Part shown: positions 1,333 to 16,375 of the stretch, in pieces
Layout: each line of letters begins with the position of its first letter
How positions within the stretch are numbered: the first letter of the stretch is position 1
Origin: Candidatus Bathyarchaeia archaeon
Lineage (GTDB): Archaea > Thermoproteota > Bathyarchaeia > Bathyarchaeales > Bathycorpusculaceae
Assembly (NCBI GenBank): GCA_050012755.1
Contig: JBEKGO010000042.1
Location: forward strand, 1-16,375
DNA: 16,375 bases
Direction: 5' to 3'
The notes under the pieces: generated by a model
Seen by the model: only the letters and a program-made list of their open reading frames with translations
Database searches by the model: none
What the model was told of the DNA's origin: nothing
Position numbers and translations under genes: made by a program

Positions 1333-2838
1333 CTAGAATGGTTGGCTTATTTCAACTTTATGTTGAGCCTTCCATTCTTTGATTGGAACGCCAAGTTTCT
1401 TTTCAACTTCAGTTCTGTGGATGGAGTTCATGGTGCAGAATGGAATTATTCGTCCATCGGGCACAGCATAATGAATCAGGCAGCGTTGTACACGTTCAAG
1501 GTCAAAGTTGTAGGGATCCATAAAATGCATCGCTGAAAGCAAAATTGACTGCCTCTGCAGGTTGCCAAGAGATTTGTAGTCACCTTTTGTAACTACAGGG
1601 AACACTTTTCGTAAGGTGCTAAACTTTAGGTGTCGAACAGTGCCAAGTAACGATAGATATGCTCTAGTTTTGTGTCCACTGGATGCTTTTTCGTAAACAT
1701 CTCTCATTCCAGCAAAGAAAGCGTCAACATTTGCCATTTCACCGATGGTTTTTACTTTGCCTTTGTCAATCATGAGGTATGTTGCCATGCCACAGTGTGG
1801 GTGCGCAGTGAACTCGAGGTATCGTCTATTTTTTAATGCGCCAACAGCTTTAGACACTATAGCCACTGAAGGCACTGGGTAGAAGTCTGAGGTTTTGATC
1901 ATGCCATTTGTTTGCTCTTCAACTTTTTTCATGAAGTCGGGGATTGTGATGCGCATCTTTTCTCGATCTTTTTGGGGCAAACGCCCGCATAAGCTTACAG
2001 GTTGAACATTGATGCATCTTACAACATCAAAGTTTTTGACTGCAAAGTTTACGATATCTCCAAGTTGATGATCGTTTACACCCCTTACTAACGTGACGAC
2101 TAACACAACACTGGTGAATCCTGCTTTGCGAAGGTTCTCAATAGCCTTCATTTTAATGTCAAGCAAATCAACTCCACGGATAAACTTGAAAACATCTGAG
2201 GTTAACCCGTCAAATTGGAGATAAATGGTGCTTACGCCTGCTTCTTTGAGTTCTTTGCAATATTCTACGCTTTGTGAAAGTCTAAGGCCATTCGTATTAA
2301 CTTCCACATGGCTGAAGCCAAGCTCTTTTGCTTTTCGAACGAAATCGGGAAGGTCTTTGCGTATTGTTGGTTCTCCACCAGAGAACTGCAATGCAGTGGC
2401 TGGCACTGGTTTGTTAGCTCGAAGGTTCTCCAACATTCCAGTGATTTGCTCTTTCGTGGGTTCATACACATATCCTGCAGCGGCAGCGTTAGCAAAGCAG
2501 ACTGGGCATGTAAGGTTGCATCTGTTTGTAACGTCAATTATTGCAAGGGCAGTATGCGATTTGTGTTCGGGGCAAATGCCGCAGTCATTTGGGCAACCAT
2601 TCTTCTTTTCGGTTCGGGGATTTTCTATTCCGTCGCCGTCAAAGCGGAATTTTTCCGCGCGCACGTATTGGTCATAGTCTGACCAGTAAAGTTCTTGGAA
2701 ATGCCCATGTTCAGGGCACTCTTTTTTGATGAAGACTTTGCCGTCGTCTTCGTAAATTGTTGCATCTATAGCTTTTAGGCATTCAGGGCAGAGGCTTCTT
2801 GTAGGTTTGATATCTTTCATTTTTTTGCCTTCTAACAT
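1333..2838 (-). CDS. tes: Tetraether lipid synthase Tes / GDGT-macrocyclic archaeol synthase (MJ0619-family radical SAM enzyme)
   Basis: 501 aa. N-terminal rubredoxin-like CPEC...CPEH (C17, C20, C41, H44), auxiliary-cluster CPNDCGIC (C82, C86, C89), radical SAM CNLTCPVC (C107, C111, C114), SGGEPT, YLQFDG, HPHCG, MHFMDPYNFD.ERV.RC.IHY..PDGRIIPFC. Alternative start ATG 2820. Confidence 0.88.
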   Translation of the reverse strand: MLEGKKMKDIKPTRSLCPECLKAIDATIYEDDGKVFIKKECPEHGHFQELYWSDYDQYVRAEKFRFDGDGIENPRTEKKNGCPNDCGICPEHKSHTALAIIDVTNRCNLTCPVCFANAAAAGYVYEPTKEQITGMLENLRANKPVPATALQFSGGEPTIRKDLPDFVRKAKELGFSHVEVNTNGLRLSQSVEYCKELKEAGVSTIYLQFDGLTSDVFKFIRGVDLLDIKMKAIENLRKAGFTSVVLVVTLVRGVNDHQLGDIVNFAVKNFDVVRCINVQPVSLCGRLPQKDREKMRITIPDFMKKVEEQTNGMIKTSDFYPVPSVAIVSKAVGALKNRRYLEFTAHPHCGMATYLMIDKGKVKTIGEMANVDAFFAGMRDVYEKASSGHKTRAYLSLLGTVRHLKFSTLRKVFPVVTKGDYKSLGNLQRQSILLSAMHFMDPYNFDLERVQRCLIHYAVPDGRIIPFCTMNSIHRTEVEKKLGVPIKEWKAQHKVEISQPF

Positions 2839-5378: not shown

Positions 5379-5756
5379 ATGATGGATGACTATCGAAAAG
5401 GATGGGCCCTTAGATACCTTCGTGAAGCAAAAGCTGAATTGGAAGCAGCACGAAAGATACCTTATATGGCGCCTGGTTTAGTTCTGGAAGCGATCAGGAA
5501 AGCACGAAACGCCATATATTACAGTCTAGGAGAACCTGCTTTCATAGAGATACTCATCCATGAAGAGGTAACCAAAAACCCAAATACAAATGACTCAATC
5601 CTGCGTTTTTTAATTGAAATTGAAACCATCATACAACAAATTTCACAATTGGAAGAAGTGAATGAAGATGCTATGATGAAGCAGGCAGATTCAATAGTTA
5701 ACATAGCAACCGATATCGTGGAAACCTTAACCGAAGAAAGGTTCCAGAATTTCTAA
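5379..5756 (+). CDS. All-helical hypothetical protein, HEPN-like
   Basis: 125 aa. YLREAKAELEAA...EAIRKARNAIYYSLG and C-terminal ADSIVNIATDIVE resemble HEPN helices. No Rx4-6H motif. 26 nt downstream of rps17e. Confidence 0.6.
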   Translation: MMDDYRKGWALRYLREAKAELEAARKIPYMAPGLVLEAIRKARNAIYYSLGEPAFIEILIHEEVTKNPNTNDSILRFLIEIETIIQQISQLEEVNEDAMMKQADSIVNIATDIVETLTEERFQNF

Positions 5757-5780
5757 TTCCGATTAGGAATCGCGTAAATA

Positions 5781-5805
5781 ATTTAACTTAACAATTATTA
5801 TAAGC
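5781..5805 (+). promoter_or_regulatory. TATA-like promoter for the ubiquitin-like/DUF62 pair
   Basis: AT-rich ATTTAACTTAACAATTATTATAAG, then GTGAAGGAG SD before ATG 5824. Confidence 0.45.
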
Positions 5806-5823
5806 TTACGTGAAGGAGAATAA

Positions 5824-6108
5824 ATGCCCTTAAACATAAAATTCATCGGTGCATTACGCCACATCTCAGGTAAAACACAATTAACCGTTAACTGTCAGGG
5901 AAGCATATCACTAAAAACGTTGTTGTCGAAGCTTAGCCAAGAATTTCCATCATTGGAAAAAAGCTTCAACGATCAACAACTCAACGATTCAAGATCCAAT
6001 GCGCTAATACTTGTTAACGGCAGGGAAATTAGTGTTCTGAGTGGTTTGGAAACAAAATTAAATGATGGAGACGAAATTGTTTTTGTTCCTGTTGTCCACG
6101 GCGGCTAA
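5824..6108 (+). CDS. MoaD/ThiS/Urm1-SAMP family ubiquitin-like protein
   Basis: 94-aa beta-grasp pattern IKFIGALR..SGK...ILVNGREI..L.GLETKL.DGDEIVFVPVVHGG with free C-terminal diglycine. Confidence 0.93.
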   Translation: MPLNIKFIGALRHISGKTQLTVNCQGSISLKTLLSKLSQEFPSLEKSFNDQQLNDSRSNALILVNGREISVLSGLETKLNDGDEIVFVPVVHGG

Positions 6109-6113
6109 ATAGA

Positions 6114-6887
6114 ATGATAACTTTGACGAGCGACTTTGGTCTAAAAGACCCTTACGTTGCAGAAATGAAAGGGGTAATTTTAACAATTAACCCAAGGGCG
6201 ATAATAGTCGACATAACACATGACATTGAAAGATTCAATATTGGAGTGGCTGCTTTCATGTTGGCTTCAGTAGCATCTTATTTTCCAAAAGGCACAGTCC
6301 ACTTAGCTGTTGTTGATCCTGGCGTGGGCACTGAAAGACGTGCGATTCTAGTTCAAACTAAATGCGGCTTTTTTGTTGGACCTGACAATGGGGTCTTAAT
6401 GTTAGCGGCTCAAAGTCAAGGCATAGAGCGCACATATGAACTTTCAAATCCTAATTTAATGCTTCCAAAAACCTCCAACACTTTTCATGGAAGAGACATT
6501 TTTGCGCCCGCCGCAGCTTACATAGACAAAGGCGCTAAACCACATGAGTTTGGGCCTGAAATAGAAAACCCAGTTTTACCCCGCTTTCCAGCAGTTAAGA
6601 GAAGCAACTACTCATTAACTGGTGAAGTTTTGTATATCGATGGCTTTGGCAATATTATCACTAACATACAAAAGAAAGACATGGTTAATTCTAAAATATT
6701 TAACGTGAAACTAACTGAGGTTACGTTGAAGCTCAAATTTGGTAAAGCCTACGCCGAAGCAGAGCCCAAAGAGCCTATTGTTTTGGTGGGAAGCTACGGC
6801 TTTGTGGAAATAGCAGTAAATCAGGGTAATGCAGCAAGCAAGTTTAATGCGAAAGTGGGAGATAAAATCACAGTTTCCGCTGCTTAA
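6114..6887 (+). CDS. SAM hydrolase / S-adenosylmethionine hydroxide adenosyltransferase (DUF62, halogenase-fold family)
   Basis: ITLTSDFG..DPYVAEMKGVI, HLAVVDPGVGTERR, VGPDNG, SNTFHGRDIFAPAAA, YIDGFGNIITN, EIAVNQGNAA. The Asp-Arg-His triad of hydrolases is present. Confidence 0.93.
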   Translation: MITLTSDFGLKDPYVAEMKGVILTINPRAIIVDITHDIERFNIGVAAFMLASVASYFPKGTVHLAVVDPGVGTERRAILVQTKCGFFVGPDNGVLMLAAQSQGIERTYELSNPNLMLPKTSNTFHGRDIFAPAAAYIDKGAKPHEFGPEIENPVLPRFPAVKRSNYSLTGEVLYIDGFGNIITNIQKKDMVNSKIFNVKLTEVTLKLKFGKAYAEAEPKEPIVLVGSYGFVEIAVNQGNAASKFNAKVGDKITVSAA

Positions 6888-7857
6888 TGCTGTCAACAAC
6901 TTTTTCGATTACGTCAACAGGGTTCTCGAGTTCTGCAAGCTTACTCTGCGTATCGAATCTCTTGCCAAGATACTTCTTTGCATATGCAAGAACTCTTCGC
7001 TCTGTGGTTGCAAATAATGGAAAGCCCTTCTTTGTCAAATATGTGTTAACGTATGTTTTAGCCATATTAGAAATAGCTATGCTGGGTACGCCTTGAAGTG
7101 CTGCTTCCCTACCAATAGTTCCCCCATAGCTAACAACCAAATCAGCGTTCGCAACTAAATTTGCTGAATCCACAAAGCCTTCTTTGACGCCGAAGGTTTT
7201 GCTTTCTCTGTTGTATCTTTGAATCAAATTGACGTTTCCCAAGGCAGCAAGCTTCTCGACCATGACTTGTGCGTTGTCTTTTTTGCCGCCTGCGTATGTT
7301 GCTTTTGTTTCTAGCTGCCGAATAACTATTAACGGTTTCCTTAGCTCTGCAATTTCTACAGGTTTAAACTCTCTAATCCATGCGACCTCGTCAACCCCCT
7401 TATAGGAAACAACATTCTTAGGGCAATAGTTCTTGACAAAACCGCGCGGCAAAGCTTCTGACACTACAACAGTATGAGCAAAAGGTATCGTTAGCCTATT
7501 AACAGCGTAGGCGTAAGGGGTATCTGCAGTCAAAATTATCGGGATTCCCAAACCGAAAGCAGTTCTGCAAAGCTCAACCGACTGATGCGCTATTGCAATG
7601 TCTGGAGGATTATTTTCGAAGAGTTTAGAAAACTGCAAAACTCGTTCTGCACTTTCTTCAAGTCTTGAGAAGAGCGTTGCCGGATTGTATTTGCCCACCA
7701 CAATAGGTTTTTCCCCAAGAACTTTGGCTAAGGGAATGGTGTCTGGATGCTCGCGCGTTGTAAAAACGAATTCGTGCCCTGCCTTCCTAAGACGTTGCCC
7801 AATAGCCGTGCCATACCTGACGTGTTTACCTGTGCAGGCATCATACCATATTCTCAT
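6868..7857 (-). CDS. DUF354-family protein (GT-B-fold glycosyltransferase/epimerase-like)
   Basis: MRIWYD....KHV...I...L...GHE...TTR, R.AFGLGIP.I...DTP.A...N.LT.PFA, YKGVDE.AWI..F.P, ADLVVS.GGT..REAAL.GVPSI. Start overlaps the upstream stop (ATGA). Confidence 0.88.
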   Translation of the reverse strand: MRIWYDACTGKHVRYGTAIGQRLRKAGHEFVFTTREHPDTIPLAKVLGEKPIVVGKYNPATLFSRLEESAERVLQFSKLFENNPPDIAIAHQSVELCRTAFGLGIPIILTADTPYAYAVNRLTIPFAHTVVVSEALPRGFVKNYCPKNVVSYKGVDEVAWIREFKPVEIAELRKPLIVIRQLETKATYAGGKKDNAQVMVEKLAALGNVNLIQRYNRESKTFGVKEGFVDSANLVANADLVVSYGGTIGREAALQGVPSIAISNMAKTYVNTYLTKKGFPLFATTERRVLAYAKKYLGKRFDTQSKLAELENPVDVIEKVVDSIKQRKL

Positions 7858-8366
7858 TTCTTCACCTTAGATCTTGACTTTATGAAAGTGCCGCGTTTGG
7901 CTTCATACTCTTTTAGAGTCATAACTACGCGTGCTGGGTTGCCCGCTACCACTGTTCTGGGCGCCACGTTTTTGGTGACTACGCTTCCGCCCCCGACCAC
8001 TGCCTTCTCACCTACAGTTACATCTGGTAAAATTGTGGCTCCTCCGCCGATTTGGGCTCCATTTCTGATGATTGGCGGTGTCAAAAGGACGCTTTTCGGG
8101 TACTTATCATTTAGTAGCGAAGTGTTGGGAGCAATAAACACGTTGTCGCCAAGCACGCAGTCGTTTGAAATAGTTACATGTGCTTGAATGTTGCAGTTTT
8201 TGCCTAAAACTACATTTTTGCCAATATCGCAAAAGCTTCCGATTAGGGTTCCATCGCCGATTTTTGTGTTGTCGCCTATTACAACGTAATTCCAAATGGC
8301 AACATTTGCGCCTATTTTCACATTTGTTCCTGTAACAATGCCTGTGCCTTTTTTTGCGTTCAGCAT
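7854..8366 (-). CDS. Hexapeptide-repeat (left-handed beta-helix) sugar acyltransferase, WbpD/LpxA-like
   Basis: Repeated [VI]xIGxNxxI hexapeptides, GDNVFIAP...LNDKYP, GAQIGGGATILP.VTVG..AVVGGGSVVTKNV....VVAGNPAR. Confidence 0.92.
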   Translation of the reverse strand: MLNAKKGTGIVTGTNVKIGANVAIWNYVVIGDNTKIGDGTLIGSFCDIGKNVVLGKNCNIQAHVTISNDCVLGDNVFIAPNTSLLNDKYPKSVLLTPPIIRNGAQIGGGATILPDVTVGEKAVVGGGSVVTKNVAPRTVVAGNPARVVMTLKEYEAKRGTFIKSRSKVKK

Positions 8367-8384
8367 AAAGTCTCATTTCGGGCT

Positions 8385-8431
8385 CCAGATTTAAATAGTT
8401 TAACTTTAACATGACTCTCCAACGACGGAGG
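8385..8431. promoter_or_regulatory. Divergent promoter with self-complementary TATA box; SD of the dehydrogenase gene
   Basis: ATTTAAAT palindrome at 8389-8396 in a 73-bp gap. GGAGG at 8427-8431 before TTG 8440. Confidence 0.5.
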
Positions 8432-8439
8432 CAAACAGC

Positions 8440-9312
8440 TTGACTAAAGAAACAGTTCTAATTATCGGTTTAGGCGAGATTGGTCACACACTTTTTGCAT
8501 TGTTAACTGAACAGAAAAAGAATTTCGATGTCTATGGTCTTGATCTGGATCAAACAAAAATGCGTGAGCTTAGCCAAAACAGAAAAAATGTTCCACAGCA
8601 AATTGATAGCTTGCATATTTGTTTGCCATGCAGTAACAAAAAAAACTTTACACACATAACCGTTGGATACGTAGCTGAGTTTAAGCCAAAACTCACAATA
8701 ATTAACAGCACCGTTCCACCAGGCACAACATTACAAATAGCGGAAAAATGCAAATGCCTAGTTGCTCATTCACCGTCCCGCGGTGTACACAAAAGTGCTG
8801 AACATATGAAATGGGAAATGAAACGCTGGACAAAATACGTAGGCGGAGCAAACGCGGATGCCGCTGCCGCAGCGTGTGCCCATTTTGAAAAGTTAGGTTT
8901 GAAAGTTAAGATTTTGAAGAGTTCTACCGAAACAGAGCTAGCTAAGCTTTTCGAAACAACTTACCGCGCATGGATGATTGCTTGCTTCCAAGAAATGCAT
9001 CGAATCTCTAAAGCTTTCGGCGCTGACTTCAACGAAACCGTTGATTTCCTCGAAGATACCCACCGGTTGAGATTTGATAGACCAGTTATGTTTCCAGGAG
9101 TGATTGGCGGGCACTGCTTGATTCCGAATACTGAATTGCTTCTCGATTGTTATGACTCAGAGTTTCTGCGGTTGATTTTGAAATCTAATGAGAAACGTAA
9201 AAAGGAAATAAAAGACAAAACCATTAAAGCAGAAGCTGAAAAAGTTGCTGCACGAGCAGAATCTTTAGAGCAGGACCTAACAAAGAGCAAAAGCAAGAGT
9301 GAATGTGAGTAA
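8440..9312 (+). CDS. UDP-glucose/GDP-mannose dehydrogenase family protein, short form lacking the C-terminal domain
   Basis: IIGLGEIG Rossmann motif, INSTVPPGTT, HSP.RG, TELAKLFETTYRA..I...QE, catalytic GGHCL. Only 290 aa. Confidence 0.88.
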   Translation: MTKETVLIIGLGEIGHTLFALLTEQKKNFDVYGLDLDQTKMRELSQNRKNVPQQIDSLHICLPCSNKKNFTHITVGYVAEFKPKLTIINSTVPPGTTLQIAEKCKCLVAHSPSRGVHKSAEHMKWEMKRWTKYVGGANADAAAAACAHFEKLGLKVKILKSSTETELAKLFETTYRAWMIACFQEMHRISKAFGADFNETVDFLEDTHRLRFDRPVMFPGVIGGHCLIPNTELLLDCYDSEFLRLILKSNEKRKKEIKDKTIKAEAEKVAARAESLEQDLTKSKSKSECE

Positions 9313-9403
9313 TCTCGTTTTATGAAGGCCTAAGGGAATTTGTCCTGGGTCTTTGGTTTCGTGCTTCGAAATATTCTGACAGTTTCATAGTGTAACCCTA
9401 GAA

Positions 9404-9461
9404 TCTGGCCCATCAATTGACTATTCTAAGAAGTCAGTTAAAAAATGCTTCTTTGGCCAGA
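9404..9461. repeat. Nested imperfect inverted repeat between convergent genes
   Basis: TCTGGCC (9404-9410) / GGCCAGA (9455-9461) enclosing AATTGACT (9415-9422) / AGTCAGTT (9432-9439). Confidence 0.5.
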
Positions 9462-9492
9462 CAAAAATGGAAAGAACTTATTATATTGATTT

Positions 9493-10377
9493 TCAGACTT
9501 TGGACGCCTTTAGGAGACCTTTCATATAATAAAACCGAATTAACGGATGAACATATAGAATCGTAGGCTCACGAGTCTGCACGGCCATAAACAAGCCAGT
9601 AAAAGGGGACAGGCAGAATCGACGTATGACTCCAAGTTTTGTTACAGGCGGGGGTTTATTTGTTTCTGCGCCGATTTTTCTCCATATTTCATACAACTGG
9701 GTTCCATACCAATATTGATGATTAAGTTCTTGTCTTAAGCTATTTCGCAAATGGATAGATTGTACATTATAATCAACAATCCATTTGTAGCTGGCGCCAT
9801 CAATTCTGTAGGCTAAAGTGGTTTCAACACCAGCGTTTACTCGCAGTTTTGGAAAACCGTCTAATGTCCTGATTATCTTTGTTTTATAAATCGTGTTGTC
9901 TAATGTTTTACCCAGAGTAAAAGCAGACATGTCTCTGGACTTAAGCCAAGACGCTAAGTTTGCCTCTCCACGATACTTCTTACCTACATACTCCTGCATT
10001 TTTCTAACGCCAGGGGGCTTGTCTGCAAAACGCATCCCAGATGCAGCAGCAACGCTTGAGTTTTCAAGTAATGGCGGAATTCTTCGCCACCAATCAAAGG
10101 CTAGCAACAAGTCTTGTTCAAAGCTTACGAAGAAATCGGATGTGACTTGTTCTAGTGCTGTATTTGCGCCATCGCTGATTCCATGGCCTTGGTTGGGGAT
10201 AACTGACCATCCAAAAGAAGAAGCAATGTTTGCCGTGTTGTCGCTGCTGGCATCGTCGACTATTATTTTCTTATTTGTAAATTCTTGAGGAATGACTTCA
10301 TTTATCCTTTGCAGGACTCTAGGCAGGGTTTGAGCTCCGTTCTTAGTCCACATTACTAAATCTACTTTGCCAATCAT
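9493..10377 (-). CDS. Glycosyltransferase family 2 (GT-A)
   Basis: VDLVMWTKNGAQTL..VL..I...IIVDDASSDNT..IA...G...GISDGAN.AL......FFVSFEQD (EQD at the DxD position). ATG 10377 preferred to TTG 10401. Confidence 0.9.
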   Translation of the reverse strand: MIGKVDLVMWTKNGAQTLPRVLQRINEVIPQEFTNKKIIVDDASSDNTANIASSFGWSVIPNQGHGISDGANTALEQVTSDFFVSFEQDLLLAFDWWRRIPPLLENSSVAAASGMRFADKPPGVRKMQEYVGKKYRGEANLASWLKSRDMSAFTLGKTLDNTIYKTKIIRTLDGFPKLRVNAGVETTLAYRIDGASYKWIVDYNVQSIHLRNSLRQELNHQYWYGTQLYEIWRKIGAETNKPPPVTKLGVIRRFCLSPFTGLFMAVQTREPTILYVHPLIRFYYMKGLLKASKV

Positions 10378-10492
10378 GCCATTCCCAAGAGAGGATGTCA
10401 ATAGTCTTATCTTAAGAAGATTAGCTATTTATAGAATCAGGGCAAAAATAAAGGAAAAACAGATTCATTAGGTGTACTTGCCAGGGTTTCTA

Positions 10493-11764
10493 TCAATTCT
10501 TTTGTTTAAAAGCCAAAAGTGAGTCTTCAAAGATAGTTTCCATCGTCCGGGCATATTTTTCCCATGACAAATGATTTTTCACATATTCATAAGCATGTTC
10601 CCCAAGTTTTTTGCGCAAATCGGCATCGTCCAATAGTTGGTTTACCTTTTGTGCCATTTCTTCTGGTTTTGTTTGGTCAAAAATTAAGCCATTGTCATTG
10701 GGTTGAATAATTTCTGATGCTCCACACGCATTGGATACGATTGCGGGTTTTGAAGCGGCCATTGCTTCAATCACTGCTAAACCCCACGTTACCTGTTGTG
10801 GGAATAGGAATACATCACAAGCAGCATACACCTTTGCCAGCTCTTCGTCATCATTGCTGTGAAGAAATAGCACTTTGTCACTTATACCAAGTTTTTCACT
10901 TAATTTTACTAACTGCTCCTTTGGACCGCCACCGTCAAGGATCAGCTTGATCCGATCATAATTCCTAGAAAGTTGATAAAGTGCCTTTATAGAATCAGCC
11001 TGACCCTTACTGAGTTGAAAGTTGCCAACCTGCAACAAAACAAAATCGTTATTCAACCCATATTTTTCTCTGACTTCTTTACCGGATGCGTTGTGAAAAA
11101 TTTCGACATCTACTCCACTTCTTACAATCCTTGAAGACCTATGGTACGCTCTATCTACATATCCCTGAGCAATTTTTGACAAAACCAAAATCTTATCAAT
11201 GTAATCTGAAGCAGCTTTATCAAATATTTCATAAATCGGTCCATTAATTTTGCGCAAGCCTTTTCTAGATTCGGAACTAAAAAACCAAATCGGCGGTTCA
11301 TTACACATCCAGACTACGGGAACATTCAATCTTTTTTTGGCGATAAAGGCTGCCCATTCAGACGGAAAATTGTGATTGTTGATAATGTCAAAGCCTTTTG
11401 GCATTTTTCGACCTATATTGATCATCGACGGGAGCTCATACGGAATTGTGTAAAACTGTCGCCCCATCGCTCTTCGCATCCAAGTTCGTAAGGAAGAAGC
11501 CCTTGCAGTTTCTCCGCCGTCGTCATCTTTTTGATAGATTTCAGAAGGGATGAGAAATTTAGGAATTTTATTTTCAAGCGGATGCGGAATCACGTTTATT
11601 GTAAGTTTTTCGATTATTTCACGATAACATTTTTCTTTGTTTACTGCACTAGTAAATATCTCTACTTCATGCCCGAACTTTTGAAGTTCAAAAGCTAATT
11701 TCAAAATTTGCCTTTGTCCTCCACCTCGACTTACAAGTGGAGTATGGATCATAGCGATCTTCAT
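10493..11764 (-). CDS. Glycosyltransferase family 4 (GT-B), paralog A
   Basis: MKIAMIH....RGGGQRQ...LA.ELQK.GHEVEIFT, SGVD, LLQVGN....KG, YAACDVFLFP....WGLAVIEAMAASKP.IVS..CGASEII. Confidence 0.94.
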   Translation of the reverse strand: MKIAMIHTPLVSRGGGQRQILKLAFELQKFGHEVEIFTSAVNKEKCYREIIEKLTINVIPHPLENKIPKFLIPSEIYQKDDDGGETARASSLRTWMRRAMGRQFYTIPYELPSMINIGRKMPKGFDIINNHNFPSEWAAFIAKKRLNVPVVWMCNEPPIWFFSSESRKGLRKINGPIYEIFDKAASDYIDKILVLSKIAQGYVDRAYHRSSRIVRSGVDVEIFHNASGKEVREKYGLNNDFVLLQVGNFQLSKGQADSIKALYQLSRNYDRIKLILDGGGPKEQLVKLSEKLGISDKVLFLHSNDDEELAKVYAACDVFLFPQQVTWGLAVIEAMAASKPAIVSNACGASEIIQPNDNGLIFDQTKPEEMAQKVNQLLDDADLRKKLGEHAYEYVKNHLSWEKYARTMETIFEDSLLAFKQKN

Positions 11765-11792
11765 GAGTTCTGCATTCCAATTACGCTTAGAG

Positions 11793-11820
11793 CATTATAT
11801 AGCCCTTATAAGTTTGTCCC
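11793..11820 (-). promoter_or_regulatory. BRE/TATA promoter of GT4 paralog A
   Basis: Minus strand GGGACAAACTTATAAGGGCTATATAATG has two TATA-like boxes about 30-48 nt upstream of ATG 11764. Confidence 0.55.
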
Positions 11821-11840
11821 TTCAAACAAATGGCGGAGTT

Positions 11841-11855
11841 AGAAGAAAAAAGAAG
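11841..11855 (-). terminator. U-rich terminator after the SDR gene
   Basis: Minus strand CTTCTTTTTTCTTCT about 60 nt after the stop at 11915. Confidence 0.4.
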
Positions 11856-11914
11856 CCGTTGGTTGCAGTCAGAAAAAGCACAAACTGTGTTGAATCAAGT
11901 TTCCTTTAAGTCGC

Positions 11915-12886
11915 CTATTTCCCTTGGTTTTTTCTAAAATAGGAAATTACTTTGTCGATTCCTTCGGATAGAGATATTGTGGGCGTCCAACCTAGTTCTT
12001 TGTGTATTTTCGTTGAATCCAGAATTATTGATGCCTGATCAGAAATTAATGGTCTGTAAGGGTAGCCAGGAGGATATGAACCGAAAACAAGATTCTTCTT
12101 GTCAAATCCTATTTTGTCGGCGATCATAATAGCAAGTTCCTTGTTGGTTATGCCAATACCTGTTCCAACGTTATAAACCTGGCCATTAGCCTTTTTATTA
12201 GTCATGGACAACATGTAACCGTTCACATGATCATCGACGTACATGTAGTCCCTTATTGAATCAGGAGAGCCTACGTATACTTTCTGGCCCTTTAACATTT
12301 GAGTAACTGTATATTCTACCATGAAACTTGTGTCAAATTTCCTACCGTATGAGTTTGTAGGTCTCAATATGGTGCCGTTCAAATTATACGAATTAAACAT
12401 CATTCGTAAATAGAGGTCGGCTGCAGCCTTGCTAACCGCATATGGGCTAGAAGGATTTAGAGGCAAGTTTTCTTTTAATGGCTCGTTCTTCTGTATACCA
12501 TAGACTTCAGCTGTTGATGCAGCTATGAAGTGTCTGGTCTGTGGATCTTGGAGTGCGAGCAGCGAATGTGCTATGTTCATAGTTCCGATGTAGTTAGATT
12601 GTTGATATTCGAAAGGTCGCTCGAATGAATCTCGTACAGGTGACAGTGCGGCTAGATGGAAAATCACGTCAGGATTGGCTGTCTTGACCGCGTTTAGAAT
12701 AGAGACATAATCTGAAACGTCGCCTGAAATTGTGGTAATGTCCTGCAACAAATCGTGGATTACCTCCATGTTTCGACTTGCTACTCTTCGCACGACACCA
12801 TATACTTCAACGTTCTCGTTAACGAGTTTCTTGGCTAAGTGGCTACCTATGAAGCCCATGATTCCTGTTATTAACGCTCTTGTCAT
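11915..12886 (-). CDS. Extended SDR NDP-sugar 4,6-dehydratase/reductase (GDP-mannose 4,6-dehydratase-like)
   Basis: LITGIMGFIGSHL, GVVRR (GMD-like), HLAALSPVRDSFERP, ASTAEVYG, PSSPYAVSK (YxxxK), RPTNSYG, RDYMYVDD. ATGA overlap with the upstream gene. Confidence 0.9.
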   Translation of the reverse strand: MTRALITGIMGFIGSHLAKKLVNENVEVYGVVRRVASRNMEVIHDLLQDITTISGDVSDYVSILNAVKTANPDVIFHLAALSPVRDSFERPFEYQQSNYIGTMNIAHSLLALQDPQTRHFIAASTAEVYGIQKNEPLKENLPLNPSSPYAVSKAAADLYLRMMFNSYNLNGTILRPTNSYGRKFDTSFMVEYTVTQMLKGQKVYVGSPDSIRDYMYVDDHVNGYMLSMTNKKANGQVYNVGTGIGITNKELAIMIADKIGFDKKNLVFGSYPPGYPYRPLISDQASIILDSTKIHKELGWTPTISLSEGIDKVISYFRKNQGK

Positions 12887-13602
12887 GCTTGGGAACTCCG
12901 TAACATGGCGAACTCTTTTTCTGCAACAGATAAGTCCTTAACGCTATTAATAGTTAACCATAGCTCCTCAGGTTTGAGTTTGCACGCTTTCAGCGCTCGC
13001 TTCTTTGCAAGCAACGGAAAAACTGTTCTTTCGATGGATCCATTCTCCGGGATATAATCAAGTATTTTCCGGTTGAAAATATACACTCCAATACTGACGA
13101 ACATGTTTTCAACCAAAGGTTTCTCCTTGAAAGATACAATGTCATCGCCTTCTAGTTCGAGTATCCCAAAAGGTGAACGCATAGGTGCAACAGCAACCGT
13201 AGCTACAGGTTTGCTCATAAAATGTAACTCTTCGATGCGCTCCAAGTTTAAACTAGTGATTTCATCTCCATTCATTGCCAAGAAATCATCGTCTTTCACA
13301 AACCTGCTTATGGCAAGACGGAATCCTTCCCCAGTTTCGCCTTCAACTGTGTGCTCGCTAAAATCTATTTTCAAACCTTGTGAGTTCTCTTTCAAATAAT
13401 TAATGACTACTTCTTTGTGGTAAGCAACGCCCAACACGATGTATTTGAAACCCTGGCTTTTCAGCCATGATATTATCCAGTGGATCAGAGGTTTTCCCTT
13501 AAGGGGAACCATGCATTTAGGCATATCTTCTGTAAAAGGTCGCATACGCAAACCTGCGCCTCCAACTAATATGACGGCAGTATTGATCTTCTTCACTTTC
13601 AA
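12883..13602 (-). CDS. Sugar-1-phosphate nucleotidyltransferase (NTP_transferase family)
   Basis: AVILVGGAGLRMRPFT..MPKCMVP..GKPLI, MNGDEI, PFGILE...IVSFKEKP....VSIGVYIF. True start may be GTG at 13596, 6 nt after GAGGG. Confidence 0.93.
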   Translation of the reverse strand: MKVKKINTAVILVGGAGLRMRPFTEDMPKCMVPLKGKPLIHWIISWLKSQGFKYIVLGVAYHKEVVINYLKENSQGLKIDFSEHTVEGETGEGFRLAISRFVKDDDFLAMNGDEITSLNLERIEELHFMSKPVATVAVAPMRSPFGILELEGDDIVSFKEKPLVENMFVSIGVYIFNRKILDYIPENGSIERTVFPLLAKKRALKACKLKPEELWLTINSVKDLSVAEKEFAMLRSSQA

Positions 13603-13685
13603 CCCTCACAAAAACTGAATTCATACTAAAAGTACAAATATATAAACTTAAATTGCCTTCATAAAACACAACTTGTGAAAAAGCA
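13603..13685. promoter_or_regulatory. Divergent promoter region (nucleotidyltransferase / GT4 paralog B)
   Basis: Central ATATATAA (13638-13645) readable on both strands. Palindrome CACAA-C-TTGTG at 13667-13677. Confidence 0.55.
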
Positions 13686-14954
13686 ATGAGAATTGCAATG
13701 ATTCACCCCACGCTATGGGGACGCGGTGGTGCTGAAAGGCAGCTCTTGAGGTTAGCCGTTGAACTTCAGAAAATGGGGCATGAAGTCGAGATTTTTACCG
13801 ATTTCGTTAACGAGAACTGTTATCCTGAGCTTCTGGAGAACTTAACAGTCAACTTGGTTCCTCATCCATTATGGCGAATGCATCGCGCCATGGGTTGGCA
13901 AGCAACCTCCTCAATGATTCACCAAGATCAACCAGGCAACACAAAAGTCTCCTATGTTGACAAGATTATGCGCAAATTAGTGCTGAAGCAATACTACGCC
14001 AAAGAATTGCCTCTTATGCTAAATTTGGGAAAAAGCATACCCAAAGGCTTCGACATAATCAACAACCACAATTTCCCAAGCGAGTGGGCTGCATTCATCG
14101 CAAAAAGAAACCTGAAGATCCCAATCGTATGGATGTGCAACGGACCACCCACGTGGTTTCTTACTAAAACAAAAAGCAAGATAAGCATCCTTTATTGGCC
14201 ACTTTTTGAAGCCTTCGACAGAACAGCCGTTGACTACATTGACGAAATCGTAACTTTATCCGGTGCGTTGGCTAGAGACATCAAGATAGCCTACGACAAA
14301 CCTGCAAGGTTGGTAAGAACGGGTGTAGACGCCGATTTTTTTCGCGAAGCCGACGGCGCAAGCTTCAGGAGAGCACATGGGCTAGAAAAAAGTTTTGCCC
14401 TGCTTCAAGTAGGTAACATAGGACAGGTCAGAAGAAATGTTGATTCCATAAAAATTCTTGAATACCTATGTCATAAATACGACGATGTCAAGCTGGTTTT
14501 GGACGGCTACGGCTCACCCATGCAGATAGATGAGTTAATGAGTTTAGCCGAGAAATTGGGATTGAAGGACAATTTGATTATTCAACAGACTCAAGTTGAC
14601 AGTGAACTTGCCCAAGTTTATGCTGCTTGTGATGTATTCATTTATCCTTCGTATGTGCCTTGGAGTTTGGCTGTTACTGAGGCAATGGCCGCTTCAAAAC
14701 CGGTAATTATTCCAAAAGAGTCTGGAGTTTCTGAAATCATAACGAACGGTGTAAACGGTATAATCATAAACACCTCAAGCCCTGAAGAAACCGCTAAGCA
14801 GATAGAATTGTTGCTTATAGATCCGACCCTACGCAGAAAAATAGGCGAAAACGCATACAAATACGTCAAGAACAATTTGTCTTGGAAACAATACGCCAAG
14901 AGCATGGAAAACATATTCGAAAAGACGATATCAAATTCCAAGAAAAGAAACTAA
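13686..14954 (+). CDS. Glycosyltransferase family 4 (GT-B), paralog B
   Basis: MRIAMIHP....RGGAERQ..RLA.ELQKMGHEVEIFT, TGVD, YAACDVFIYPS...WSLAVTEAMAASKP. Shares the identical block PKGFDIINNHNFPSEWAAFIAK with 10493-11764. Confidence 0.94.
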   Translation: MRIAMIHPTLWGRGGAERQLLRLAVELQKMGHEVEIFTDFVNENCYPELLENLTVNLVPHPLWRMHRAMGWQATSSMIHQDQPGNTKVSYVDKIMRKLVLKQYYAKELPLMLNLGKSIPKGFDIINNHNFPSEWAAFIAKRNLKIPIVWMCNGPPTWFLTKTKSKISILYWPLFEAFDRTAVDYIDEIVTLSGALARDIKIAYDKPARLVRTGVDADFFREADGASFRRAHGLEKSFALLQVGNIGQVRRNVDSIKILEYLCHKYDDVKLVLDGYGSPMQIDELMSLAEKLGLKDNLIIQQTQVDSELAQVYAACDVFIYPSYVPWSLAVTEAMAASKPVIIPKESGVSEIITNGVNGIIINTSSPEETAKQIELLLIDPTLRRKIGENAYKYVKNNLSWKQYAKSMENIFEKTISNSKKRN

Positions 14955-15035
14955 CAAATTCCTTTTGATCCCGATACCTAAGGTTTGAAAACCGTAGTTG
15001 TTCAATTCCTTGAAAAAAGCCTTTGACGGTAAAGT

Positions 15036-15052
15036 GGAAACGATTTTATACT
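15036..15052 (+). promoter_or_regulatory. BRE-TATA promoter of the C-methyltransferase gene
   Basis: GGAAACGA followed by TTTTATAC, about 36 nt before ATG 15087. Confidence 0.5.
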
Positions 15053-15086
15053 TGTCTGGTGGACTTGAAGTAGCTTGTGAAACATC

Positions 15087-16361
15087 ATGCAAGTCAAAGC
15101 ACGAGAAACCTGCAGAGTTTGTGGATCAAACAAGCTAGTTCCAATTCTGTCTTTGGGTGAACAGTTTGTCACGAACTTTGTTGACGATGCAAAGAAAGAT
15201 TATCCTAAGGGTCCGCTGGAACTAGTTCTCTGCAACGTTAAGAACGGCGGTTGTGGGCTTCTGCAACTAAAACACACGTTAGAACGTGACGTTTTGTACA
15301 CTAAGTACTGGTACCAGTCAGGAATAAGCAAAATGATGGTTAAAGCATTAGCCGATATCGTCTCGTGTGGCGAAAAACTAGTAAAACTCTCCTCCGGAGA
15401 CTTGGTAATAGACATCGGAGCGAACGACGGCACCCTTTTAAGACAATACAAAACGCCTGGGTTGGTTACCGTAGGTTTTGAGCCCTCTGACTTGTTTAAA
15501 CTAGCCACTAAAGGAACATCCAAAATAATAAACGACTATTTCAACAGCAGCGCATTTAAGCGAGAATTCAAAAACAAAAAAGCAAAACTCATAACAAGCA
15601 TTTCCATGTTCTACGACTTGGAAGATCCGAACACCTTCGTCGAGGACATAAAACATTGCCTAGACGAGAATGGAGTATGGATAATACAAATGAACTACCT
15701 CGGCTTAATGCTGGAAAACAACACTTACGACAACATCTGCCATGAACACCTCGAATACTATTCTCTGCTTTCTTTATCGAACCTGCTTCAAAAGCACAAC
15801 ATGGAAGCGTTAGATGTGGAACTGAATAACGTAAACGGCGGCAGCTTCAGAATATACATCACACACAAAGGAAGTAAGCTGAAGGGGTTTCCAGGATGCA
15901 AGGAAAGATTAGAAAAACAAAAGAAATACGAAGAAAAAATGGGGTTTAACGGTAAGAGAGTTTACGATAAGTTTTCACAGCGAATAGAAAAAAGTAAAGC
16001 CGAATTGATGGAGTTCCTCACACAGGAATCAAAAAAGGGAAAAAAGATATTTATCTACGGAGCCTCTACGCGCGGCTTGGTTGTCCTGCAATACGCCGGA
16101 ATAGACAAGAAACTAATCAAAGTCGCAACCGACAAGAATCCCGAAAAATGTGGAAAATACATCGTTGGCACAGGCATCCCGATAATTTCTATCGAGCAGT
16201 ACCGGAAAGAAAGACCTGACTACCTGTTTGTCCTTCCATACCATTTCCTGGAAGAAATAAAACAACAAGAAAAAGCGTTTCTAAAAGCAGGCGGAAAAAT
16301 GATTGTTGCCATACCAAGGTTTGAAATAGTACCAAGCGCAAACACTAACCATATTCCTTGA
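15087..16361 (+). CDS. NDP-hexose C-methyltransferase (TcaB9/TylC3/NovU-like; Zn domain + class I SAM domain + C-terminal domain)
   Basis: CRVCG...SLG.Q....F...PLELVLC..C.LLQL Zn site, YWY.SG, DIGANDGTLL, GFEPS, YDNICHEH..YYS, NGGS.R, YGA..RG, D.NP.K.G....GT.IPI, PDYL.VLP..F..EI, GGK.IV.IP. 424 aa. Confidence 0.9.
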   Translation: MQVKARETCRVCGSNKLVPILSLGEQFVTNFVDDAKKDYPKGPLELVLCNVKNGGCGLLQLKHTLERDVLYTKYWYQSGISKMMVKALADIVSCGEKLVKLSSGDLVIDIGANDGTLLRQYKTPGLVTVGFEPSDLFKLATKGTSKIINDYFNSSAFKREFKNKKAKLITSISMFYDLEDPNTFVEDIKHCLDENGVWIIQMNYLGLMLENNTYDNICHEHLEYYSLLSLSNLLQKHNMEALDVELNNVNGGSFRIYITHKGSKLKGFPGCKERLEKQKKYEEKMGFNGKRVYDKFSQRIEKSKAELMEFLTQESKKGKKIFIYGASTRGLVVLQYAGIDKKLIKVATDKNPEKCGKYIVGTGIPIISIEQYRKERPDYLFVLPYHFLEEIKQQEKAFLKAGGKMIVAIPRFEIVPSANTNHIP

Positions 16362-16375
16362 CAACAGTGCCTTTT

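Follow-up and report, generated by a model that had tools for sequence, protein, structure and literature searches.

The stretch of DNA analysed here (the window, 16,375 bases) constitutes the entire contig C42 of a 2.41 Mb, 65-contig genome, rated 100% complete, from an uncultured peat/wetland Bathyarchaeia archaeon, and probably carries a surface-glycan module, in which genes for a sugar-1-phosphate nucleotidyltransferase (NT), an extended short-chain dehydrogenase/reductase (SDR) and a Zn-binding, S-adenosylmethionine (SAM)-dependent sugar C-methyltransferase (MT) lie together with three glycosyltransferase (GT) genes. It is likely that the MT makes a C-methyl sugar of some kind, and on balance, with less assurance, we lean to the view that this is a C-methyl-branched 6-deoxyhexose made through the window's own SDR. 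The linkage, fusion and neighbourhood data given below point to a route that uses GDP-sugars, and not to the dTDP route of the antibiotic examples with which the locus had been compared in an initial annotation.

In the proposed scheme, the NT would activate a hexose-1-phosphate, most likely mannose-1-phosphate with GTP, and the translationally coupled SDR would convert the product to a nucleoside diphosphate (NDP)-4-keto-6-deoxyhexose. The Glu-His pair of the MT would then deprotonate the carbon adjoining the keto group, C-3 by analogy with solved relatives, and the methyl group added by the enzyme would, as judged from homology, yield a C-methyl-branched keto sugar. Reducing the 4-keto group could be the work of the same SDR acting twice, of an unlinked Fcl-like SDR (contigs C47, C22 and C27) or of the MT, after which the GT4 and GT2 enzymes would transfer the sugar to a surface acceptor, which may be an S-layer N-glycan or a lipid. 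The pathway as a whole is plausible.

The six genes on which the initial annotation had been founded (a GT2, two GT4s, the SDR, the NT and the MT) were all recovered where it had placed them, with the following Pfam matches:

9493..10401, minus strand: glycosyltransferase of the GT2 family, closing the NT-SDR-GT4a-GT2 unit (PF00535, 49.3 bits)
10493..11764, minus strand: GT4 glycosyltransferase GT4a (PF00534, 134 bits, plus PF13439)
11915..12886, minus strand: extended SDR of the GDP_Man_Dehyd/Epimerase type, sister to the GDP-mannose 4,6-dehydratases (GMDs) (PF16363, 227 bits; PF01370, 186 bits)
12883..13602, minus strand: sugar-1-phosphate nucleotidyltransferase NT, 239 amino acids, TTG start (PF00483, 88.2 bits, cut-off 21.2)
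13603..13685, no strand: AT-rich divergent spacer of 83 nucleotides with a TATA-like 'ATATATAAA', read directly from the letters
13686..14954, plus strand: GT4b, a GT4 glycosyltransferase immediately upstream of the MT (PF00534, 104 bits, plus PF13439)
15087..16361, plus strand: Zn-binding SAM-dependent sugar C-methyltransferase MT (PF08421, 46 bits; PF13489, 50.7 bits; PF08484, 155.7 bits)

Linkage, fusions and neighbourhoods of the methyltransferase

In 8/8 Bathyarchaeia loci the MT (72–80% identity), the NT (63–76%) and an SDR bearing the sequence 'STAEVYG' (65–75%) were located within a few kb, and five of the eight also contained orthologues of both GT4a (54–62% identity) and GT2 (47–63% identity, beside NT-SDR), each of which was present too in two loci devoid of an MT (L034 and L036). 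In the complete genome of a member of the same genus (G003) the order was MT-NT-SDR on one strand. An MT orthologue was detected in 6 of 120 other genomes of the family, with an SDR orthologue approximately 3 kb away in all six. A 525-amino-acid DUF3131 protein (PF11329, 110.7 bits), absent from the window, is encoded directly after MT-NT-SDR in G003 (L010:15482–17059).

A survey of natural fusions was conducted on the 25 longest of the best 150 relatives of the MT. Eleven of these proteins combined an MT with an SDR of the GDP_Man_Dehyd family, while single examples were recorded of NT-MT, GT4-MT and MT-NUDIX fusions and of an MT joined to a second methyltransferase; three of the remainder contained inteins and seven had no extra domain. 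Among the references used, all eleven fused SDR domains were closest to E. coli Gmd, and the catalytic Glu was retained in nine of them, in one as Ser-Ala-Glu. Identity between the window NT and the corresponding domain of P0145, the NT-MT fusion, was 36% (E = 9e-46). These MT-GMD-like fusion proteins thus unite the same MT family with a GMD-family partner, whereas in the window the two are separate genes and the SDR belongs to a distinct clade, sister to GMD.

More distant neighbourhoods gave a comparable picture. In a Nitrososphaeraceae locus (L023) a gmd match of 328.9 bits, in a truncated open reading frame (ORF), preceded the MT and an Fcl-like SDR followed it, and a Gmd- or Fcl-type SDR stood beside the MT in seven of nine loci from Nitrososphaeraceae, Patescibacteria, Marinimicrobia and Proteobacteria. 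Four actinomycete MT loci contained only an RfbC-like cupin, situated some kb off. Taken together, the linkage, the fusions and these distant neighbourhoods therefore appear to tie the MT subfamily to GDP-sugars and not to dTDP-sugars. The initial annotation had proposed successive activation, dehydration and C-methylation on the model of bacterial branched sugars such as mycarose; linkage of the NT, SDR and MT in every Bathyarchaeia locus agrees with the scheme itself, but fusions and neighbours point to GDP in place of the dTDP of the antibiotic examples cited there.

By its gene content, the locus is one that resembles known pathways of activation, 4,6-dehydration and C-methylation, the closest logic being that of the in silico GDP route put forward for virenose of the Coxiella burnetii lipopolysaccharide, which is described as proceeding through GDP-mannose pyrophosphorylase, GMD, a C-3 methyltransferase and an epimerase/reductase (PMC3539893), and which in the account of PMC3204966 is without biochemical proof beyond its first steps. 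Both share the succession of guanylyltransferase, GMD-type dehydratase and C-methyltransferase, together with the same puzzle over what reduces the 4-keto group, and the arrangement in L023 (gmd, MT, Fcl-like) is exactly the layout of the virenose route. By way of contrast, the dehydratase candidate of the window is a divergent sister of GMD whose score falls well short of the gmd cut-off, the locus is without a linked Fcl-like gene, and the host is an archaeon. The departures from known pathways, as read from the genes, are accordingly fourfold: a GMD-sister SDR, an Asp/Cys site in the MT, the lack of a linked reductase and an MT that is optional.

Archaeal glycans are known for unusual sugars. 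A search of the literature nevertheless located no C-methyl-branched sugar from any archaeon, in agreement with the initial annotation, to which no characterised archaeal pathway to such a glycan was known. All the enzyme families in the locus are already known, and similar gene sets are present in many uncultured microbes. Characterisation of the MT subfamily would put to the test the GDP route that has long been suggested for virenose and sugars like it.

Three observations on related loci concern associated functions. In a Nitrososphaera metagenome-assembled genome (MAG; L021:1981–6869), the genes that come after an MT with 54% identity encode a DegT-type aminotransferase, two methyltransferases, a NeuB-cytidylyltransferase fusion and another NeuB, an arrangement that places a C-methyltransferase inside a nonulosonic-acid-like cluster. 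A methyltransferase of the FkbM/RfbT type (PF05050) adjoins the MT in two loci (L012:11378–12232 and L017:8946–9806), where the sugar may also be O-methylated. The first of these belongs to the closest relative (MT 80% identical), and its SDR and GT4b are split into two and three ORFs, respectively (5539–6514 and 8644–9914); the frameshifts responsible could represent either real decay or assembly errors.

Family and active site of the methyltransferase

The MT aligned end to end with MtmC (4rv9; E = 6.4e-50; residues 4–422 against 8–423), a structure deposited under the molecule name 'D-mycarose 3-C-methyltransferase', and also over its full length with the solved enzymes TcaB9 (3ndi; 1e-34) and KijD1 ('sugar 3-C-methyl transferase' 5t64; 1e-33). 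All parts of the three-domain build (the PF08421 Zn domain, a class I SAM domain and PF08484) scored above the Pfam cut-offs, and the initial description of the protein as a Zn-containing NDP-hexose C-methyltransferase is borne out to the extent that it is a full-length member of this fold. Many close homologues are automatically annotated by the Joint Genome Institute as 'NDP-4-keto-2,6-dideoxyhexose 3-C-methyltransferase'.

Residues of likely functional relevance in the MT are Cys9, Cys12, Cys49 and Cys56, the SAM motif DIGANDG, Asp177, and the sequence Cys218-His-Glu220-His221. The four Cys residues are presumed, from the TcaB9 structure and the name of the Pfam domain, to be the Zn ligands. 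Entries in the PDB for TcaB9 variants carry a mutated His in 'tlcHip' (4e2w), Tyr in 'qiYdeh' (4e2x) or Glu in 'dEh' (4e30, to Gln); at these positions the MT has Asp177, Cys218 and Glu220, the last followed by His221, such that the MT retains Glu-His but departs from TcaB9 at the remaining two positions. The variant chains support the roles ascribed to these TcaB9 residues. In enzymes of the TcaB9 type the His of this pair serves as the base that removes the C-3 proton, and His221 of the MT corresponds to it.

The four Cys, two Tyr, DIGANDG and Glu-His were conserved in 22/22 MT orthologues, one truncated row lacking the Cys region. An unbiased search was made of 1.84 billion cluster representatives, which yielded 12,182 matches at E ≤ 1e-3 and 2,406 at ≤ 1e-30, and the best 150 representatives were used for residue counts. 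Asp was present at position 177 in 142 of these, the Glu in 147, the His in all 150 and the four Cys in 130–139, while position 218 was occupied by Cys in 96, Val in 16, Gly in 15, Ser in 12 and Tyr in none. This pattern of Asp without Tyr among the best 150 relatives indicates that the MT belongs to a large and distinct subfamily of the fold. No biochemical study of the Asp/Cys subfamily was found in a literature search, part of which was drowned by unrelated matches. In some homologues (P0131, P0195, P0220) the MT sequence is interrupted by inteins or LAGLIDADG domains.

Compared with MtmC, TcaB9 and 5t64, the MT thus has the same three-domain build, aligns over the full length and keeps the four Cys, the SAM motif and Glu-His. 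It differs in being only ~30% identical, in having Asp177 and Cys218, and in a 4-residue insert between the second pair of Cys; moreover, the three solved enzymes derive from actinomycete genes for dTDP-sugar antibiotics, whereas the MT is found in an archaeal surface-glycan context with GMD-like partners.

Identity of the SDR and the nucleotidyltransferase

The catalytic positions of the SDR are Thr125-Ala126-Glu127 and Tyr149-x3-Lys153. According to Table 1 of PMC8987622, GalE has no added acid/base, the dTDP/UDP-glucose dehydratases have Asp-Glu, CDP-glucose dehydratase has Asp-Lys, and GMD has [ST]-S-E, in which one Glu is the sole extra catalytic residue. The Thr-x-Glu…YxxxK arrangement of the window SDR agrees with the single-Glu scheme of GMD in its Thr, Glu, Tyr and Lys but has Ala in place of the Ser, and would on these grounds be of the dehydratase type and not of the GalE type. 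Support for the role of Glu157 in human GMD comes from the same table and from PDB titles that carry '(S156D)' and '(E157Q)'.

Other comparisons lean the same way. The SDR shares with E. coli Gmd a GMD-like 'RRxxS' segment after the second beta-strand. In a quick-search tree of 39 rows, anchored on the E. coli proteins RfbB, RfbD, Gmd, Fcl and GalE and the C-domain of ArnA, a 13-row clade of 'STAEVYG' SDRs was placed as sister to the GMD clade, and outside it, with a Shimodaira-Hasegawa-like approximate likelihood ratio (SH-aLRT) support of 89, and the window SDR was separate from E. coli GalE. Query-normalised TM-scores of a structural model (predicted local distance difference test score, pLDDT, 78.7; loop 128–143 below 50) were highest for GMDs, at 0.86–0.87 against 0.80–0.84 for others, which constitutes a weak lean of the modelled structure towards GMD.

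A scan of the 100%-complete genome with the gmd model disclosed no canonical GMD, the window SDR being the best match. If the MT needs GDP-4-keto-6-deoxyhexose, the SDR is therefore the only candidate source. It may be described as a putative NDP-hexose 4,6-dehydratase, and by analogy is possibly the 4-reductase also. Its previous description as GMD-like finds some support in the Thr-x-Glu…YxxxK residues and its sister position, but the enzyme remains below the gmd cut-off and is without the GMD loop. Thus, set beside E. coli Gmd (1db3) and human GMD, it has the single Glu in Thr-x-Glu…Tyr-x3-Lys, 'RRxxS', the sister tree position and the TM-scores in its favour, whereas it is ~50 residues shorter, has Ala for Ser, lacks 'NHESPRRG', and scores 124 bits (119.9 in the genome-wide scan) against a cut-off of 415 with the gmd model TIGR01472. 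Other NCBIfam models were likewise short of their cut-offs: 187 against 365 bits for dTDP-glucose dehydratase (TIGR01181), 171 against 475 for LegB and 129.5 against 262.3 for GalE (TIGR01179).

The best solved relatives of the NT were mannose-1-phosphate guanylyltransferases and HddC (7whr, 7x8j, 7d72, 6jq8), and its best NCBIfam scores, all below cut-off, were with Arch_glmU (108 bits), man1P_GTase (101 bits) and HddC (99 bits). As judged from these relatives, the NT probably forms a GDP-sugar.

The reduction step and the genes beyond the window

The window ends 14 nucleotides past the MT stop codon. The only contig end found to overlap it was that of C19 (minus strand), over 41 nucleotides at the window start, with none at the MT end. 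Synteny with L016, L017 and L020 makes C3 the probable next contig, the first genes of which encode two proteins without a Pfam match and a class-V aminotransferase. The initial annotation had recommended inspection of the downstream genes for a 4-ketoreductase; the syntenic loci and C3 suggest that genes for a ketoreductase, a 2,3-dehydratase or a sugar aminotransferase are absent after the MT.

Candidates for the reduction are nevertheless available. Fcl-like SDRs unlinked to the window are encoded on the three contigs named above, and those on C22 and C27, each of which precedes a GT2, fall together with the SDR located after the Nitrososphaeraceae MT. The GMD of PBCV-1 is reported both to dehydrate and to reduce (PMC5408694), and either a dual-function MT or a bifunctional GMD has been proposed as the reducer of the 4-keto group in Coxiella (PMC3539893).

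Observations against the proposed pathway and alternative explanations

A number of observations weigh against a C-methyl-branched 6-deoxyhexose made through the window's own SDR, and are assembled here with the alternatives on which they bear. At the most general level, no enzyme of the module meets a curated family cut-off, the MT having no match whatever among the NCBIfam models, and no ketoreductase is linked in the Bathyarchaeia loci apart from L012, in which the second gene beyond the MT is RmlD-like.

Further difficulty arises from loci without the MT. In seven genomes of the family an SDR orthologue (57–89% identity, all 'STAEVYG') was present in the absence of an MT. Four of these loci had ample flanks (L034–L037) and contained NT-SDR, in two of them with the GT4a and GT2 arrangement, and no MT; the other three lay on contigs of 1.2–7 kb and were uninformative. 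A scan of five of the MT-less genomes (79–98% complete) for PF08484 gave 0 matches. MT-linked and MT-less rows interleaved in the SDR tree, requiring at least three changes. The occurrence of the NT-SDR-GT core on its own implies that this core stands by itself, with the MT as an accessory, and hence that the SDR product must be usable as a donor alone; a bare 4-keto sugar is normally no usable donor.

One arrangement, which we regard as unlikely, is a minimal, modular GDP-sugar system in which a single divergent SDR, sister to GMD, would dehydrate and later reduce, and an optional MT would intercept the keto intermediate, the outcome being a plain 6-deoxyhexose or its 3-C-methyl derivative according to strain. 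If this were true, a strain could recode its surface glycan by acquiring or losing a single gene, the sugar would be the first with a C-branch known from an archaeal glycan, and the Asp/Cys type would be the first subfamily of sugar C-methyltransferases to be characterised as GDP-dependent. Because some genomes of this one family have the MT and others lack it, nature offers an experiment in which strains with and without the branch can be compared.

An explanation of a different kind, which we consider unlikely, is that the MT branches dTDP-4-keto-6-deoxyglucose supplied by unlinked RmlA and RmlB, the SDR then not being the dehydratase but either serving a separate NT-SDR pathway as reductase or epimerase or acting as 4-ketoreductase on the methylated sugar. 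The requisite enzymes exist in the genome, contig C13 encoding an RmlB-type SDR ('STDEVYG'), a true RmlD (244 bits, cut-off 224) and a long RmlA; rml genes adjoin the module in L020, L034 and L036, and to these may be added the RmlD-like gene of L012. The characterised solved relatives of the MT, to judge by their molecule names, all act on dTDP-sugars, and NT-SDR would function without the MT. Against this, the SDR partner in MT-SDR fusions was of the GMD family in 11/11 cases and never of the RmlB type, GMD- or Fcl-type neighbours prevailed in 7/9 distant loci, the SDR keeps the dehydratase-type Glu, and MT-NT-SDR is tight in all eight loci whereas rml genes are only sometimes near.

Certain features of the SDR itself tell against a GMD-type dehydratase. 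Ala126 occupies the position at which GMD has Ser and RmlB has Asp, and 'NSYGRKFD' stands in place of the GMD loop 'NHESPRRG', a cofactor/substrate loop described as 'NHE(S/G)PxRG' in PMC3539893. By sequence the SDR is equidistant from the putative archaeal RmlB 2hun and from GalE 4zrm, Foldseek E-values of its model did not separate RmlB, GalE and GMD, and support in the quick-search tree was only moderate.

A further alternative is that the SDR is a UDP-glucuronate decarboxylase of the UXS/ArnA type, the MT then methylating a 4-keto-pentose to give a branched pentose. UXS and ArnA also have Ser-Thr-Ser-Glu-Val-Tyr-Gly (as in E. coli ArnA), and a UXS-type reaction, being redox-neutral, would furnish a usable donor without a reductase and so explain the MT-less core; an NDP-sugar dehydrogenase is encoded on C15 (175.6 bits, cut-off 189.8), and a truncated dehydrogenase-like gene lies in the window at 8440–9312. 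We nonetheless hold this to be very unlikely: the SDR scored 62.5 bits with NF008872 and 45 with ArnA, as against 187 with the RmlB model, human UXS gave 75–77 bits as against 138 for 2hun, ArnA fell outside the SDR clade in the tree, and the dehydrogenase-like protein of the window is without its C-terminal domain and unlinked in most loci.

Slightly less probable still is that the SDR acts simply as a 4-epimerase or as a 5,6-dehydratase like TunA, with the MT a functionally unrelated neighbour or inactive. GalE 4zrm was the second-best solved match to the SDR (7.4e-39), and an epimerase would likewise account for the MT-less core; TunA, with Thr-Cys-Glu, is described as a 5,6-dehydratase, an indication that the reaction can take another course when the residue preceding the Glu is altered (PMC8987622). 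The same source, however, lists GalE-type enzymes as having no extra Glu, the genome encodes two separate GalE-like SDRs ('SSAAVYG'), and the MT is intact, with 72–80% identity maintained across genera, and is always linked to the SDR.

As regards the MT, the His and Tyr common to the active sites of TcaB9 and MtmC are replaced by Asp177 and Cys218, from which it follows that its chemistry or substrate could differ. Taken further, Asp177/Cys218 might direct methylation to C-5 or to another substrate, and no 3-C-methyl sugar would be made. Asp and Cys at two of the positions mutated in TcaB9, the prevalence of Asp (142/150) and want of Tyr (0/150) among the best relatives, and the failure to find either a characterised subfamily member or an NCBIfam match are all compatible with such a role, which we rate as decidedly unlikely in view of the retention of Glu-His, the Zn site, the SAM motif and both Tyr, and of neighbours and fusion partners that are all sugar-nucleotide enzymes; a C-5 methyl would in any event still give a C-branched sugar.

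Distribution and origin of the methyltransferase

Of 24 other genomes sampled from the genus, one had an MT orthologue and two more had paralogues of 30–32% identity. Across the class, a PF08484 domain of any kind was present in 20 of 300 other genomes, 14 of which belong to a single family. A methyltransferase phylogeny had been advocated in the initial annotation as a means of detecting transfer from bacteria. In the tree obtained, from loci gathered with seed patterns including 'YDNICHEH', with consequent bias in sampling, and with L020 omitted (an N-terminally truncated ORF), the Bathyarchaeia were joined with a Micrarchaeota sequence (support 99), and the MT of a Micrarchaeota locus (L019) is 63% identical to that of the window; the backbone was unresolved and gave neither a direction nor a donor. 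The MTs of a Marinimicrobia MAG and two Rhodospirillaceae MAGs (L025, L026 and L033) were near-identical, with end branches of 0.02–0.03, a similarity that points to recent transfer or mis-binning.

Gene layout and neighbouring genes

The four bases ATGA at 12883–12886 are common to the SDR start and the NT stop, a translational overlap as originally noted for this pair. The NT unit and the GT4b-MT unit diverge from the 83-nucleotide AT-rich spacer (13603–13685), which with its TATA-like 'ATATATAAA' is a putative promoter region. GT4a and GT4b are full-length paralogues (48.6% identity), both composed of an N-terminal PF13439 and a C-terminal PF00534 domain, and neither reaches a specific NCBIfam family; among the Bathyarchaeia MT loci, a second GT4 copy of the GT4b kind was confined to the window and L012.

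Bathyarchaeia, a barely cultured group, abound in peat and sediments, and the window stretch recurs in peat/wetland metagenomes from many studies. No RNA data set was listed as containing the locus, a result that carries no information on its expression. Contigs from other metagenome runs spanned the GT4b/MT junction with 0 differences (X2 record 8, 14121–16375) or 1 difference (X3 record 15, 14013–15531), and another covered the NT/SDR overlap (X2 record 1, 9400–12937). Because contigs from other runs bridge the junctions with 0–1 differences, the gene order is taken to be real and not chimeric. GC content was 0.39–0.45 over all window genes, with no mark of recent import.

In both of these runs (X2 and X3) a contig was also found that matches the window only from 11506 to 16010 and continues at both ends into the same unlike sequence. 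This 4.5-kb block comprises the 3' part of GT4a, the SDR, the NT, GT4b and most of the MT; a second population seems to share it in a different context, and the module may be exchanged as a cassette.

Several neighbouring genes of the window are conserved elsewhere. A DUF354 protein (6868–7857, minus strand) is overlapped by a hexapeptide acetyltransferase of the NeuD/PglB/VioB type (7854–8366, minus strand), and the dehydrogenase-like gene referred to above (8440–9312, plus strand) encodes a 290-amino-acid protein resembling UDP-glucose/GDP-mannose dehydrogenases; this conserved trio (6868–9312) recurs in G003, L015 and L037. A SAM hydroxide adenosyltransferase (6114–6887, plus strand; PF01887 and PF20257) adjoins the glycan genes and is syntenic in G003. 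In addition, a 501-amino-acid radical SAM enzyme (1333–2838, minus strand) with an HMPTM N-terminal zinc ribbon (PF23545) suggests that methylation of a methanopterin-type cofactor is encoded in this genome.

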